DNA of 64,000 nt from positions 11,708 to 75,707 of the forward strand of contig JBJKSD010000019.1 of NCBI GenBank assembly GCA_046704245.1, read 5' to 3'. The DNA is from Bacilli bacterium (GTDB lineage: Bacteria > Bacillota_I > Bacilli_A > RF39 > UBA660). The notes under the pieces were generated by a model, which had not been told where the DNA came from, did no database searches, and saw only the letters and a list, made by a program, of their open reading frames with translations. Each line of letters starts with the position of its first letter. Positions within the stretch are counted from its first letter, which is position 1. Below, one piece after another: positions 30,077-37,811 of the stretch. Position numbers and translations under genes: made by a program.

Positions 30077-31765
30077 GTGATGGTGATTGTAATGATCGCT
30101 TTAGGGCAATTTAAACGTTTAAAAGAAATTATTGATAAATATATATATGATGATATTTGGAAAAACCATTTTCTTTTAGACAGCATATATGATGAAGAAT
30201 ATTATAATATGTTAATAAAATATTTTGAATTCATTTCAAAAGAAAATTTAGCTTGTGAAGAACTCCATGCTATTTTTTTATATTGTTACCAAAAGAGTAA
30301 TTTTTATTTTAATTTAATAAAAAATGATAATGATATTGAAAATGCAATTTTAAGCGAAAAATATTTTGGTTTTATTGAAAATGTAACTAACGATAGTATA
30401 ATTATTAGAAATGTAATGAAAAAATTATGTGAAGAGTTTGGTGAAAATTATTTAGAATCAGTTGCATCAATAGATCAAAATTTATCATATGATAATATTG
30501 AAATTATTAATAACTATAATGTTTCTAATACTGTAAAATTATATTTATTAATTAAATATTGGCAAGAAAAACAACATAAATATATTGAATCAGGATTTTT
30601 AAATAAAATAGATGAAATTTTTTATAAATACAATCAAAATAATGGTAATTTTATTTTTGGTACAAATTACGATGCAAAATTTACTTATTTAATGAATAAG
30701 TTTTTAGATCAAAAATTTATAAATATTGATTATTTTACGATGTTGCAAATAGTAGAACCAACATATGATTTTTCAAGCTTGGTTGGCGGAAAGGCAAATG
30801 GATTAATAAAATTAAACAGGATAAATTGCACCATTCCTACAACATATATATATATTGGAGGCCATTTTAATAAAGAAGATATTCCTAAGTTTGATAAATA
30901 TGCTGTAAGAAGTTCTGCTACATGTGAAGACGCAACAAATTGTTCGTTCGCCGGAATGTTTAATTCATTTTTAAATGTTTCAATTGATAATTTAGCTAAG
31001 AAAATATTAGAGGTTCAAGAATCAATTGATCTATCAAGGGTACAAACTTATTTAAAAGACAAAAAAATAGACAAGCTTCAGATGCGAGTTATAATTCAAG
31101 AATATAAAGAACCAATTATATCTGGTGTTTGGTTTGGTAGTGATGAAAATCCTGATTATGGAGTATTAGAATATATTGAAGGCTCTGGTGATAAATTGGT
31201 TGGTGGTTATGTTACCCCACACAGAGTAGTTTTTAATCAAAAAAATCATGAAAATAACTTAATTTCTATTTCAAAAGTAGAAATTTATAAACAACTAATA
31301 AAATATCAAAGTGAAATAGGTGAATGTTGCGATTTTGAGTGGTGTATAGTAAACAATAAATTAATAATGTTACAATGTAGACCAATTACAACACCTACTA
31401 AAAATTTTTTTGCACAATTTACTGATGAGGAAAATGAAAATGTTTTGAAGGGAATTCCTGCTTCTCCAGGCATTTATGCTGGTAATGCTATTTTTATAGA
31501 TGAATTAGCTGAAAAAAATAAATGGATTGATAATAGTATTTTACTCACTTGGTTTACTGATCCAGATTGGCTTGATATTATATTAAAATCTAAAGCTGTA
31601 GTAGTCGCAATAGGAGGATTTTTGAGCCATACATCTATCATCTGTAGAGAATATAATATTCCATGTGTATGTGCTTTAGGGAGTGAAAATTTATATAGGA
31701 TTAAAGATACAAAAGAAATAAAAGTAGATGGTAATAAGGGACTGGTTTATATATTAAAAAAATAA
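30077..31765 (+). CDS. PEP-utilising-enzyme-family phosphotransferase, copy 1 (ATP-grasp PPDK_N-like plus phospho-His swivel domain, no PEP/pyruvate TIM barrel)
   Basis: YAVRSSATCEDATNCSFAGMFNSFLNV matches the PpsA/PPDK nucleotide-binding region VAVRSSA.ED...SFAGQ...LNV. GGFLSHTSIICREYNIPCVCALG matches the swivel-His motif GG.TSHAAI.ARE.GIP.VVG. A unique N-terminal ~230-aa helical domain precedes these. Confidence 0.6.
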   Translation: MMVIVMIALGQFKRLKEIIDKYIYDDIWKNHFLLDSIYDEEYYNMLIKYFEFISKENLACEELHAIFLYCYQKSNFYFNLIKNDNDIENAILSEKYFGFIENVTNDSIIIRNVMKKLCEEFGENYLESVASIDQNLSYDNIEIINNYNVSNTVKLYLLIKYWQEKQHKYIESGFLNKIDEIFYKYNQNNGNFIFGTNYDAKFTYLMNKFLDQKFINIDYFTMLQIVEPTYDFSSLVGGKANGLIKLNRINCTIPTTYIYIGGHFNKEDIPKFDKYAVRSSATCEDATNCSFAGMFNSFLNVSIDNLAKKILEVQESIDLSRVQTYLKDKKIDKLQMRVIIQEYKEPIISGVWFGSDENPDYGVLEYIEGSGDKLVGGYVTPHRVVFNQKNHENNLISISKVEIYKQLIKYQSEIGECCDFEWCIVNNKLIMLQCRPITTPTKNFFAQFTDEENENVLKGIPASPGIYAGNAIFIDELAEKNKWIDNSILLTWFTDPDWLDIILKSKAVVVAIGGFLSHTSIICREYNIPCVCALGSENLYRIKDTKEIKVDGNKGLVYILKK

Positions 31766-31784
31766 GAAAATATGGGGGCTTATT

Positions 31785-35111: not shown

Positions 35112-36099
35112 TGTTGATATTTATCCTACTATGAGGTGTCAATTAAATTGTAAATTTTGTTTTGTAGATAAATCTTTAAGAATGGCCCAACAAAATACCG
35201 ATATGGATATTAAACAACTTAAGAAATTATTAATTGAATGTAAGGAAGTGGGTGTTGCTTATATATCAATACTTGGTGGTGAACCATTTCTATATAAACA
35301 CATAAGGAAAACATTGCAAATTTTATCAGATTTAAATATTAAAACGTCAATAACTTCAAATGGCATTACAATTCCAAAATATTTGGAGAAAATAATTAAT
35401 AATAATATAAATATAACGTTTTCATTACAAAGTTTGAATTATAAAAACAAGGAATTAATGGGAGTAAATGCAAATAAAGTTATAAGAAATATTCAAAAAC
35501 TAAGGATTCCTTATAAAATAAATTCGGTTTACACTTTACAAACTATTAAAGATTTTTATAATACTATAGATTTTTGTGTCAATAATAATGTGATAAGTTA
35601 TACTGTTTCATGTTTTAATAAGCGAAAAGATAATAGTTTAGAAGAAAAGTCTTTTAAAGATATAAAAAAAATGAGAATAAAACTGAAACAATATGTGAAA
35701 TTTAGAGGATATAATTTAAATTTTAGATTTGCTGGGTGTATGCAATATGTAGCATATAAAAATATAGGAAAAATTGTTCTACATGAAGATAATAATTTTT
35801 TTGTGGGATGTGAAGCTGGTAAGACAAAATTAGATATATTGCCGAATGGTGATGCAATGGCATGTATGATGTTTGAAAAAAATCAATTTGAAGTTGGGAA
35901 TGTTTTTAAAAAAGGGATTCAACAAGTATGGTTATATTCAAGCAATTTACAATATCTCCGGAAATATAAAACAAAAGATATTCTATGCAAAAAATGTATA
36001 TATAAAGTATTCTGTAATGGTGGATGTCCAGCTAGAAATTTATCAATAAATAGTAGTTTAACTAGTAAGAGGGATGATCGATGCAAGCGCATGAATTAA
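35065..36099 (+). CDS. radical SAM / SPASM-domain peptide-modifying enzyme, copy 2
   Basis: CxxxCxxC is MRCQLNCKFC, followed by ILGGEPFL. SPASM cysteines: CEAGKTKLDILPNGDAMAC...CKKCIYKVFCNGGCPA. Confidence 0.7.
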   Translation: MVSLASGLNCLSVPISVDIYPTMRCQLNCKFCFVDKSLRMAQQNTDMDIKQLKKLLIECKEVGVAYISILGGEPFLYKHIRKTLQILSDLNIKTSITSNGITIPKYLEKIINNNINITFSLQSLNYKNKELMGVNANKVIRNIQKLRIPYKINSVYTLQTIKDFYNTIDFCVNNNVISYTVSCFNKRKDNSLEEKSFKDIKKMRIKLKQYVKFRGYNLNFRFAGCMQYVAYKNIGKIVLHEDNNFFVGCEAGKTKLDILPNGDAMACMMFEKNQFEVGNVFKKGIQQVWLYSSNLQYLRKYKTKDILCKKCIYKVFCNGGCPARNLSINSSLTSKRDDRCKRMN

Positions 36100-37811
36100 A
36101 AGACTTTAATAAAGGTTTGGATAAAATTAAAGCTTTTGCTATTGATGAACAGTGGCTAACTTCATTATGCTATGATGTATTAATTGATGAAGAATTATTA
36201 ACTTTTACTATTGAGACAATTAATTTTTGCTTAACTGATCACGCTATAGATGAAATTGAGAGTCTTTTTTCTACAATTAGATTAAATTGTCAAAACACTT
36301 TAAAAGAAATTAATAAATATGTGTCCCCATATAATAAATGGTTGATAGCTAGGAAAGCATATTTTTATTATGGATTATTAGAGATATTAATAGAAGGTAG
36401 TGTTTTTAGCAATGTTATTATTGAAAATATAAAAAAACAGTATAAAAAGCAATATCTAGAAATAGTAAGTGTTGTTGACAAATTAAATCCATCCTATTTA
36501 ACTAACTTCAATTTTGAAAATAAAGAATACAATTTAAAAAATATTGATATTGATACCGAAGAAATAAAAAAATACATATTATTAAAAAAATGGCAAGATA
36601 ATCAACATGTTTATCATGATAATATTATATATCCAATTTTTGATAAATGCAGAGAGGAATTTAAGGAATGGGCCCATAAATATTATCCTAGCCTTAATTA
36701 CCATCCAACTATCACTTTAATATTATTAAAATTACTTCAGCAACCCTTAATTAATATGGATGATATTAGTAAATGCATTATTGCTGGATTAGAGGAGGAG
36801 TTAATAAAACTAGTAGGTGGCAAAATGTATGGGCTATCTTTATTGAATAGTATGGGGATAGCAGTACCACAGGCCTTGGTTTTGCCAATTAATAAGAGCA
36901 TAGAAGATATTGATTTTAATCAATATCTAGATAGTAATATGAAATATGCAGTTAGAAGCTCAGCCGATGTTGAAGATGGCAAAAATACTTCATTTGCAGG
37001 TCTTTTTGAATCGTATTTAGATGTTAATTTACTTGATATAAAGGACTATATTTACAAAGTAAAGGAATCTGTAAATAATAATAGATTACAAGCTTATCTT
37101 AAAAAATTTAATATTAAAAGACCCCACATGGCAGTTATTATTCAAGAATATCAGGAGCCAGTTATTTCAGGGGTGTGGATTGGGAGAAGTATTGATGAAG
37201 GCATTTTAGAGTGGGTAGATGGTATTGGGCAAAAATTAGTATTGGGGCAAGTAAAACCAAATATTGAAATATGCAATAAAGGTAAGAATTCAGTAAAAAG
37301 ATTAAAAAATAATGGAAAAATAATAAAAGAATTATTGCAATTACAAAAAGAGATTGGTGCACCCTGTGACTTTGAATGGTGTATTATTGATGGTAAATTG
37401 TGGCTATTACAATATCGTCCAGTGACAAAAAATATCCAAACAATTATTTTTAATGATAATACATCAAGTATAATTGGCATTTCAGCATCTGGAGGAGAAG
37501 CAGAAGGTAAACTTAAATTTATCGAAGACATTAATAATATAGATAATTGGGAAGATAATTGTATTCTTTTAACATACTATACCGACCCCGATTGGGTACC
37601 TATTATGATTAATGCTAAAGGAATTATAACAGCCGAAGGTGGTTTTTTATGTCATGCTGCTATTATAGCCCGTGAATTAAATATACCCTGTATCACAGGA
37701 ATAGGAGAAGAAAATCTTGAAAAGTTAAAAAATTTAGATGAAATTAGATTAGATGGTGGTCGAGGATTAATTAAAATCCCTAAAAAAAAACAATTATATA
37801 AAAAATACTAG
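36081..37811 (+). CDS. PEP-utilising-enzyme-family phosphotransferase, copy 2
   Basis: YAVRSSADVEDGKNTSFAGLFESYLDV and GGFLCHAAIIARELNIPCITGIG. Paralogous to 30077..31765, including a shared N-terminal region (KKWQDNQHVY vs KYWQEKQHKY). Confidence 0.6.
   Translation: MQAHELKDFNKGLDKIKAFAIDEQWLTSLCYDVLIDEELLTFTIETINFCLTDHAIDEIESLFSTIRLNCQNTLKEINKYVSPYNKWLIARKAYFYYGLLEILIEGSVFSNVIIENIKKQYKKQYLEIVSVVDKLNPSYLTNFNFENKEYNLKNIDIDTEEIKKYILLKKWQDNQHVYHDNIIYPIFDKCREEFKEWAHKYYPSLNYHPTITLILLKLLQQPLINMDDISKCIIAGLEEELIKLVGGKMYGLSLLNSMGIAVPQALVLPINKSIEDIDFNQYLDSNMKYAVRSSADVEDGKNTSFAGLFESYLDVNLLDIKDYIYKVKESVNNNRLQAYLKKFNIKRPHMAVIIQEYQEPVISGVWIGRSIDEGILEWVDGIGQKLVLGQVKPNIEICNKGKNSVKRLKNNGKIIKELLQLQKEIGAPCDFEWCIIDGKLWLLQYRPVTKNIQTIIFNDNTSSIIGISASGGEAEGKLKFIEDINNIDNWEDNCILLTYYTDPDWVPIMINAKGIITAEGGFLCHAAIIARELNIPCITGIGEENLEKLKNLDEIRLDGGRGLIKIPKKKQLYKKY

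Follow-up and report, generated by a model that had tools for sequence, protein, structure and literature searches.

What does a phosphotransferase related to central metabolic enzymes do beside a peptide-modifying radical enzyme? This question is raised by the locus at positions 30077–37811 of the window (the whole 64,000-nucleotide stretch of Bacilli bacterium DNA that was analysed), where two radical S-adenosylmethionine (rSAM)/SPASM enzymes of the type that matures RiPPs (peptides made by the ribosome and modified after translation) are each accompanied by a protein related to phosphoenolpyruvate (PEP) synthase (PEPS) and rifampin phosphotransferase (RPH), referred to below as the kinases P1 and P2. 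Our analyses indicate that the locus consists of two unrelated RiPP cassettes (viz. cassettes C and A) that adjoin each other, each with its own PEPS/RPH-like phosphotransferase. The reading that we favour, with a probability of about 0.55, is that these are independent rSAM RiPP cassettes in which the N-terminal domain (N-domain) of the kinase binds, and the kinase phosphorylates or activates, the cassette's own peptide. A preliminary description of the window, made from the letters alone, had presented the locus as two near-symmetric copies of one RiPP gene set; the open reading frames (ORFs) that it listed are confirmed and RiPP-type biosynthesis with rSAM/SPASM maturases is supported, whereas several of its assignments are revised below.

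The identification of P1 and P2 as PEP-utilising enzymes, with an ATP-grasp domain and a phospho-His swivel domain but no TIM barrel, has been upheld. Both proteins match the Pfam families PF01326 (PPDK_N; E-values of 5e-27 for P1 and 2e-25 for P2) and PF00391 (PEP-utilizers; 7e-16 and 1e-23, respectively), and neither is matched by PF02896, the PEP/pyruvate TIM barrel, P2 ending after its swivel domain. Because this barrel is missing, the kinases cannot make PEP. In the AlphaFold2 model of P2 (pLDDT 86.7), an all-helical region (residues 1–235) is followed by the ATP-grasp (239–450) and swivel (463–565) domains, and the Foldseek matches of P2 are PPDK and RPH. P1 shares this architecture of helical N-domain, ATP-grasp and swivel-His domain, and its start is likely the ATG at 30092 (MIALGQFKRL...), as suggested by the family alignment. 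The residues and motifs of P2 that are invariant across 29 sequences comprise GGK248, R292-S-S, E298-D299, D430-x-E432-W, Q444-x-R446 and H525 (GGFLCH), the last of which corresponds in the alignment to the GGLMTH His of RPH. The phosphoryl group in PEP synthase, RPH and phenylphosphate synthase passes from ATP to His and then to the acceptor, with release of AMP and Pi; since the nucleotide-binding motifs, the Mg-binding motifs and the His are all invariant, the same relay is, to judge from sequence, almost certainly functional in the present family. The earlier assignment of the kinases to the RPH type thus holds for the general RPH/phenylphosphate-synthase type but not for RPH in the strict sense, as the domain order differs and the central substrate domain is absent.

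A search with P2 has identified ~70 clusters, in which the full-length proteins have ~570 amino acids (aa) and all come from uncultured Bacilli, Clostridia or 'Tenericutes'. No family member was found in viral contigs, and a metagenome scan, the search patterns of which were not family-specific, added two family loci. The N-domain sets this rare family apart. Its profile (236 residues) gave 119 hits against 1.84 billion representative proteins, and because all of these hits are proteins of the same architecture or fragments of them, the domain is private to the kinase family, in agreement with the earlier view that a ~230-aa N-terminal region is unique; no specific fold relative of this domain was found in the PDB. 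Between clades of the family, the N-domain is 23% identical as compared with 43–44% for the catalytic domains, and it retains an invariant polar set of residues (viz. E101, D133, S138, Y165, K169, W171, Q172 and D173).

The pairing of these kinases with rSAM genes is conserved, which is the outcome of a neighbourhood comparison that the preliminary description had proposed as a check. A full-length family member is carried by 24 species-representative genomes, and in 17 of them one or more rSAM genes lie directly beside the kinase on the same strand, with rSAM remnants in 2 more; the adjacency is also found in loci L001, L007, L089, L092, L093 and L095. Several cassette types can be distinguished. 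Type A (L001–4, L007/8, L009, L010, L011 and L095) consists of a small gene, c8, in some loci, a KGDGW precursor, an rSAM with a RiPP recognition element (RRE), and the kinase, after which an M16 (PqqF-like) peptidase is translationally coupled in L007 and L009. Type C consists of the kinase, an RRE-rSAM and a precursor (L089, L092 and L093/94); L032 belongs here with a truncated rSAM, and L091 has the rSAM and precursor on a short contig. Type B (L023:1843–10930, also L015, L019, L024–L027 and L031) combines an aminotransferase, a ~540-aa rSAM of the B12-dependent-methyltransferase type (a B12-binding domain is present in its L016 homologue), two SPASM rSAMs, the kinase and, on the opposite strand, a YcaO protein. 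Its small ORF (...KELKPEMTQCRIVQVD...) encodes a conserved precursor, ...KEL(K/R)P(E/D)MTQCR(I/V)(I/V)Q(V/I)D..., within which the Thr of MTQCR is conserved. Lastly, in the L016/L017 type the kinase is accompanied by a discrete PqqD-like protein, a SPASM rSAM and a B12-rSAM. The partner rSAMs of the kinase family thus belong to very different subfamilies. In a neighbour-joining tree of the kinases, the clades follow cassette type, with P1 in clade C together with L032 and L089, and P2 in clade A; stand-alone kinases are nested inside these clades.

Three side observations concern these loci. In L011 (3487–4257) a HAD-family (Cof-type) phosphatase gene stands right after the kinase and is absent from the near-identical L001 cassette, and L025 and L026 may encode a second peptide ending in CSDCC or CSDVC. 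The metagenomic protein P0169 (L175:65–1405; 446 aa) has an N-terminal PEP-utilizers swivel-His domain (GGITSHAAILGREFGLPVV) fused to an rSAM/SPASM part that is 29% identical to rSAM1, the rSAM of cassette C. Its gene starts 65 nt from the contig edge and is neighboured by genes for an HDAC-like deacetylase and an MR_MLE racemase; it is a possible Rosetta-stone link between swivel-His and rSAM/SPASM enzymes.

Within the window, cassette C (30077–33306) has the order P1, RRE-rSAM/SPASM gene and Cys-rich precursor with an S-C-P-C motif, and cassette A (34059–37811) the order c8, KGDGW precursor, StrB/SuiB-like rSAM and P2. The features of the locus are as follows, c8 being an addition to the gene set first listed.

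30077..31765, plus strand: P1, phosphotransferase of cassette C (PF01326 and PF00391 matches; clade C of the kinase tree)
31785..31970, plus strand: N-terminal RRE-like fragment of rSAM1, 61 aa, frame 0 (homology to the intact L089 rSAM)
31973..33115, plus strand: body of rSAM1 with the last RRE helix, radical SAM core (CNLKCYYC) and SPASM (PF04055, PF13186)
33112..33306, plus strand: precursor 1, 64 aa (orthologous peptides after the rSAM in L089, L092, L093 and L091)
33349..33828, minus strand: thioredoxin-like protein, membrane-anchored, CPAC (PF00085)
34059..34602, plus strand: c8, small protein of cassette A without a family match, frameshifted (homologues in L007 and L009)
34651..34755, plus strand: precursor 2, 34 aa, KxxxW type (KGDGW peptides in other cassette A loci)
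34719..35111, plus strand: N-terminal RRE-like part of rSAM2, 130-aa ORF, frame 0 (match to the L001 rSAM)
35065..36099, plus strand: rSAM2 core and SPASM, StrB/SuiB type (CQLNCKFC; SuiB match, TIGR04080 as top family)
36081..37811, plus strand: P2, phosphotransferase of cassette A (Pfam matches, AlphaFold2 model, Foldseek)

The view of the two halves as near-symmetric copies is not borne out. Identity between P1 and P2 is 35% across the full proteins, that between rSAM1 and rSAM2 is only 22%, the two precursors are unrelated, and the gene order differs between the cassettes; these identities, together with the kinase tree, rule out a recent tandem duplication. Both rSAM ORFs contain PF04055 and the SPASM domain PF13186, as had been described.

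Cassette A is, judged by its sequences, a diverged relative of the streptide system. The small peptide ORF of the preliminary description is indeed a peptide gene, but its identity is that of a streptide-type KGDGW precursor. Precursor 2 (MQRIKKYAISNFLDDCHFKKGDGWKVKKSKKSKK) contains ...CHFKKGDGWKV... and has a strong Shine-Dalgarno sequence, being preceded by AAAGGAGGG. KGDGW peptides are encoded upstream of the rSAM in all of the other cassette A loci (L001, L007, L009, L010, L011 and L095), and type A precursors end in ...(C/S)(H/R)F-x-KGDGW..., with a Cys or Ser at one fixed place ahead of the motif, which is the motif that is cyclised in streptide (PMC5491770). rSAM2 matches SuiB (5v1q) with an E-value of 9e-44 over residues 121–455, every other solved rSAM being matched at 4e-8 or worse. 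It was therefore mistaken to treat both rSAMs as SPASM maturases of the thioether type, rSAM2 being a relative of the StrB/SuiB-type Lys-Trp cyclases. Its top NCBIfam model is TIGR04080 (KxxxW cyclic peptide radical SAM maturase; 177 bits at profile positions 100–438, cut-off 500), and the end-to-end scores of the L001 (297.6 bits) and L007 (173.9 bits) rSAMs are likewise below this cut-off, so that rSAM2 is best described as a diverged relative of these maturases and not as an equivalog. The RRE-like part of rSAM2 (RRE2) had no match in the PDB. StrB joins Lys C-beta to Trp C7 (PMC11851443), and by homology rSAM2 would make a streptide-type Lys-Trp carbon-carbon crosslink within KGDGW. The P2 start overlaps the rSAM2 gene by 19 nt, and the same 19-nt overlap is present in L001 and L007.

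The c8 protein has a full length of ~180–200 aa, and a 134-aa ORF (34198–34602) represents its C-terminal part. In L007 and L009, its homologues lie directly upstream of the gene for the KGDGW precursor, the family comprises only 3 proteins among 5.8 billion, and there was no Pfam or PDB match. A peptidase function for c8 was considered and set aside, the sole ground for it being that one His and one Cys are invariant. In L007 (6061–6687) the c8 frame runs stop-free into the KGDGW precursor (...NMKKIKSISVNKVIDNSRFKKGDGWKSIPKEKRK), which could there be translated either as the C-terminal end of a 208-aa protein or by starting at the internal Met; in the window, c8 and precursor 2 lie in one frame with stop codons between them.

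In cassette C, rSAM1 matches PF04055 (E-value 1e-28) and SPASM, and its best PDB match is SkfB (1.4e-16). No NCBIfam family reaches its cut-off with rSAM1: the top match is the mycofactocin rSAM (151 bits; cut-off 265), followed by lower fractions of the cut-offs for StsB (107/625), SkfB (89/300) and PapB (81/340), and the intact L089 ortholog has similar sub-threshold scores. The start of precursor 1 overlaps the rSAM1 stop codon (ATGA). Its core is SRSCPCKCTCTCQCQCRCTILD and its leader holds W-N-I-K-D-L-F...V-D-S-V-x-C, in keeping with the leader common to type C precursors, W-(D/N)-I-K-D-L-F...V-D-(S/T)-V-x-C, after which S-C-P-C is invariant within a Cys-X repeat core. rSAM1 most likely crosslinks the Cys-rich core; that it would do so by forming thioethers is a guess only.

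The thioredoxin-like gene between the cassettes has the membrane anchor that had been described for it, an N-terminal hydrophobic segment, together with CPAC and a PF00085 match (E-value 6e-7); its similarity to PedC/BrcD is weak (37.8 bits against a cut-off of 120). It is not present in the other cassette C loci examined, and because it is not conserved with type C elsewhere, its membership of the system is doubtful. In those loci an ABC-F gene is found on the opposite strand after the Cys-rich precursor (L089:8592–10217, L092:7343–8971 and L093:4487–6103, all minus), encoding two ABC_tran domains and ABC_tran_Xtn without a membrane domain. The window has no ABC-F gene at that place, which is occupied by the thioredoxin-like gene. 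The ABC-F gene is possibly an immunity or regulatory gene of cassette C loci.

How might the kinases act on these peptides? In the mechanism that we propose, the ATP-grasp domain would take a phosphate from ATP, the swivelling His domain would carry it, and the family-exclusive helical N-domain, standing in for the PEP/pyruvate barrel that PEP synthase has and for RPH's rifampin domain, would bind the acceptor. The acceptor would presumably be the cassette's own precursor or the rSAM-modified peptide, and the product a phosphorylated peptide or else a phosphoryl-activated intermediate that later undergoes elimination or ring closure. A peptide-directed role is supported by the same-strand adjacency of kinase and rSAM genes, often with the 19-nt overlap, by the retention of cassettes A and C each as a unit with homologous precursors, by kinase clades that track cassette type, by an N-domain that differs more between clades than any other part of the protein, by the coupling of M16 leader peptidases after the kinase in L007 and L009, and by the natural fusion in P0169.

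Several observations weigh against this role. The three precursor types share no acceptor residue, and in the KGDGW core of the window (DDCHFKKGDGW) neither Ser nor Thr adjoins the motif. In six of the 24 genomes no rSAM lies near the kinase, and in L005, the closest relative of P2, the kinase stands alone among Bro-N/ORF6N/pRha phage-like genes. The invariant polar residues of the N-domain could instead point to a non-peptide substrate common to all cassettes. Lastly, rSAM1, c8 and rSAM2 are disrupted in the very locus that raised the question. A broader proposal, which we advance tentatively and at somewhat under even odds, is that swivel-His phosphotransferases with a private helical domain constitute a new class of RiPP maturation enzymes, which would be dedicated partners of SPASM rSAMs and add phosphate, or a phosphoryl-driven further modification, to the crosslinked peptide in at least three or four peptide families (viz. 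the streptide-like KGDGW, the S-C-P-C repeat, the MTQCR family with YcaO, and the PqqD/B12-rSAM type).

The disruptions lead to a question that is independent of what the kinases do, namely whether the locus is alive in this genome. The two RRE-like ORFs, earlier taken for separate genes, are the N-terminal ends of the rSAM genes, the remainder of which lies in another frame; they match residues 1–78 and 1–81 of intact fused rSAMs, and intact relatives of both enzymes are single proteins of 431–463 aa with an N-terminal RRE-like domain (438–457 aa for rSAM1 homologues). The 61-aa ORF is 52% identical to residues 2–59 of the 441-aa L089 rSAM, and in tblastn searches residues 1–78 of that protein align to 31782–32012 in frame 3 and residues 71–440 to 31991–33100 in frame 2, a break that fits the loss of one base near 31958–31970. 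No ATG, GTG or TTG codon precedes the CxxxCxxC motif in rSAM1, and because of this missing start, rSAM1 as sequenced is probably a frameshifted, broken form of a fused RRE-rSAM. In rSAM2, the 130-aa ORF matches residues 10–80 of the 449-aa L001 rSAM, and residues 1–81 of the L007 rSAM align to 34806–35042 in frame 3 and residues 97–427 in frame 1; the break is most simply explained by one extra A in the A9 run at 35047–35055. As the rSAM2 core has its own ATG, it could work as a split enzyme. The N-terminus of c8 (MSKKSFQVQLIICEGSELEG) is in frame 0 (34059–34131); the remainder is read in frame 1, starting at about 34114, and the junction falls within a TA repeat. An alternative genetic code is ruled out as the source of the broken ORFs, since the breaks are frame changes and not in-frame stops, and programmed frameshifting was rejected on a by-eye reading in which no X-XXY-YYZ slippery site was seen at the rSAM1 junction.

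These disruptions may reflect genuine decay of the locus, phase variation at its simple repeats, or errors in the local assembly. That the locus is a decaying relic with real frame changes and no product has, in our estimate, a little less than an even chance. Three frame changes fall within 7.7 kb when none of ten other window ORFs tested shows any sign of being split, the protein that NCBI itself gives for rSAM1 is a 290-aa stub, and the truncated rSAM beside an intact kinase in L032 indicates that such cassettes decay elsewhere. Against this, each of the three changes is located in an A/T run or a TA repeat, a kind of site that is also affected by assembly errors and phase variation; neither kinase and neither precursor is damaged; and rSAM2, which keeps its own ATG, could work with a separate RRE protein. 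With rSAM1 and c8 frameshifted and rSAM2 split, the locus may be partly or wholly inactive in this genome.

Turning back to the role of the kinases, the best surviving alternative to phosphorylation of the peptide is that the kinase leaves the peptide alone and serves the rSAM enzyme, or some small molecule that every cassette has in common, for instance through phosphorylation of the enzyme itself, a cofactor or a by-product. The polar N-domain motif K-x-W-Q-D, which is invariant in all clades whatever the peptide, the partnership with rSAMs from very different subfamilies, and the presence of the P0169 fusion in a neighbourhood without an obvious precursor are all consistent with such a function. 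We nevertheless regard it as unlikely, since no known rSAM needs such a partner and StrB and SuiB work in vitro without one (PMC5491770), and since, from one cassette type to another, the N-domain changes at twice the rate of the catalytic domains, an indication that its ligand is class-specific.

Self-protection, in which the kinase would phosphorylate and inactivate the mature peptide inside the producer in the manner of RPH and would be an immunity gene and not a maturation gene, appears distinctly improbable. RPH is among the closest solved relatives of the kinases, the kinase clades follow peptide class, and some kinases occur singly, a frequent arrangement for resistance genes. However, streptide has no known antibiotic activity (PMC13361665), the conserved opposite-strand ABC-F gene provides another immunity candidate for cassette C, and both the conserved 19-nt overlap with the rSAM gene and the position of the kinase between the rSAM and an M16 leader peptidase are typical of a maturation step.

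The preliminary proposal was that the Thr residues which alternate with Cys in the CTCTC core are phosphorylated; dehydration and thioether rings might then follow. This proposal finds two Thr in the window core and a precedent in the phosphorylation and elimination known from lanthipeptides, but is very improbable, since the orthologous type C cores of L089, L092, L093 and L091 (CGCPCSCPCPNPCGCP, WSCPCPNPCGCP and CSCPCPCVG among them) hold no Thr, their sole conserved hydroxyl being the Ser of S-C-P-C, and the paralogous kinase P2 serves a KGDGW core without Thr.

The window is low in GC (~27%) and densely coding on the plus strand; a promoter and terminator scan was uninformative in DNA of 25% GC. 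Upstream of the locus lie trmL-like and aspS genes, and downstream of it a pair of paralogous genes without assigned function (37965–38981 and 39464–40642, plus strand). The proteins of this pair are 50% identical over 239 aa, each is N-terminally anchored, and neither matched a real Pfam family; the second (39464–40642) has a long (P-E/D/T/V-P-D/E)n proline-rich linker. The genes at 40759–46283 share their similarity clusters with genes that surround the stand-alone L005 kinase; two of these are annotated in L005 as RcpC and T2SSE, and this suggests that the shared genes are a pilus or secretion set. A further rSAM/SPASM protein of 572 aa with a weak MazG-like C-terminal match is encoded 20 kb upstream (8563–10281, plus strand), and a 2-hydroxyglutaryl-CoA dehydratase D-component-like gene followed by one for a BcrAD/BadFG-type activase ATPase (15739–17755, plus strand) represents ordinary anaerobe metabolism.

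New peptide chemistry is coming at a fast-growing rate from the rSAM RiPPs, of which streptide is a founding example, and rSAM RiPP clusters themselves are already known; what is new here is the type of accessory enzyme. As the preliminary description had surmised, no characterised RiPP class with such a pairing was found in the literature, nor any paper linking PEP-utilising enzymes to RiPP or rSAM clusters, by full-text searching that is thin on subscription papers, and a conserved, co-evolving partner from the PEP-synthase/RPH superfamily is not described in the papers searchable in this way. If the kinase acts on the peptide, RiPP biosynthesis would gain a new class of enzyme and, probably, a new modification. 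In that case, because the N-domain profile hits only the kinase family, it would provide a handle for genome mining, and three uncharacterised peptide families of gut Bacillota could be expressed from intact orthologous clusters. The reading of the window itself is corrected to two cassettes of different kinds, of which one is related to streptide, with several broken genes; because this copy is partly broken, the interest of the system lies chiefly at the family level.

A comparison with known systems serves to place the two cassettes. As in the streptide system, the precursor of cassette A, encoded directly upstream of the maturase, has the exact KGDGW(KV) motif, and rSAM2 is nearest to SuiB, the intact relatives of rSAM2 being fused RRE-rSAM-SPASM proteins of ~440 aa. 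In the window the RRE and rSAM2 parts lie in different frames, which may reflect a true split, a mutation or an error of sequencing. Cassette A differs from the streptide system in the addition of (C/S)(H/R)F ahead of the motif and of the extra gene c8, and in the TIGR04080 scores (177 bits here and 174–298 in relatives, against the cut-off of 500). Its hosts are metagenome-assembled genomes of low-GC gut Bacilli and Clostridia, whereas those of streptide are streptococci. Downstream, where a StrC-type protease/ABC transporter is expected in streptide loci (PMC5491770), cassette A has the PEPS-like P2, with or without an M16 peptidase. Cassette C resembles the sacti- and ranthipeptide systems (SkfB, StsB and PapB) in having an RRE-rSAM-SPASM protein, rSAM1, beside a Cys-rich peptide, but its C-X repeat/S-C-P-C core is unlike known cores, no family model reaches its cut-off for rSAM1, and a kinase is present in every intact type C locus.

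The kinases share PPDK_N and PEP-utilizers domains with PEP synthase and PPDK, their best PDB sequence match being 8a8e (E-value 5e-49), but they are without the C-terminal TIM barrel and score 135–153 bits against equivalog cut-offs of 598–740. With RPH, PigC/RedH and phenylphosphate synthase they have in common the ATP-grasp and C-terminal swivel-His domains, the absence of a barrel, and the same catalytic motifs. The substrate domain of RPH is a ~430-aa insert between these domains, whereas the kinases have an unrelated helical domain of ~235 aa before the ATP-grasp, which in P2 is directly followed by the His domain; they are of ~570 aa as compared with ~860 for RPH, and reach 116–119 bits with NF041857 (cut-off 999). 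Known RiPP kinases include the kinase domains of LanL/LanKC, the lasso peptide kinases, which are HPr-kinase-like, and, for the thioamitides, phosphotransferases of the TvaC type. Like these, P1 and P2 are ATP-dependent phosphotransferases encoded inside RiPP clusters; they differ from them completely in fold and mechanism, the P1/P2 type being one of phospho-His relay with release of AMP and Pi and not of direct gamma-phosphate transfer.

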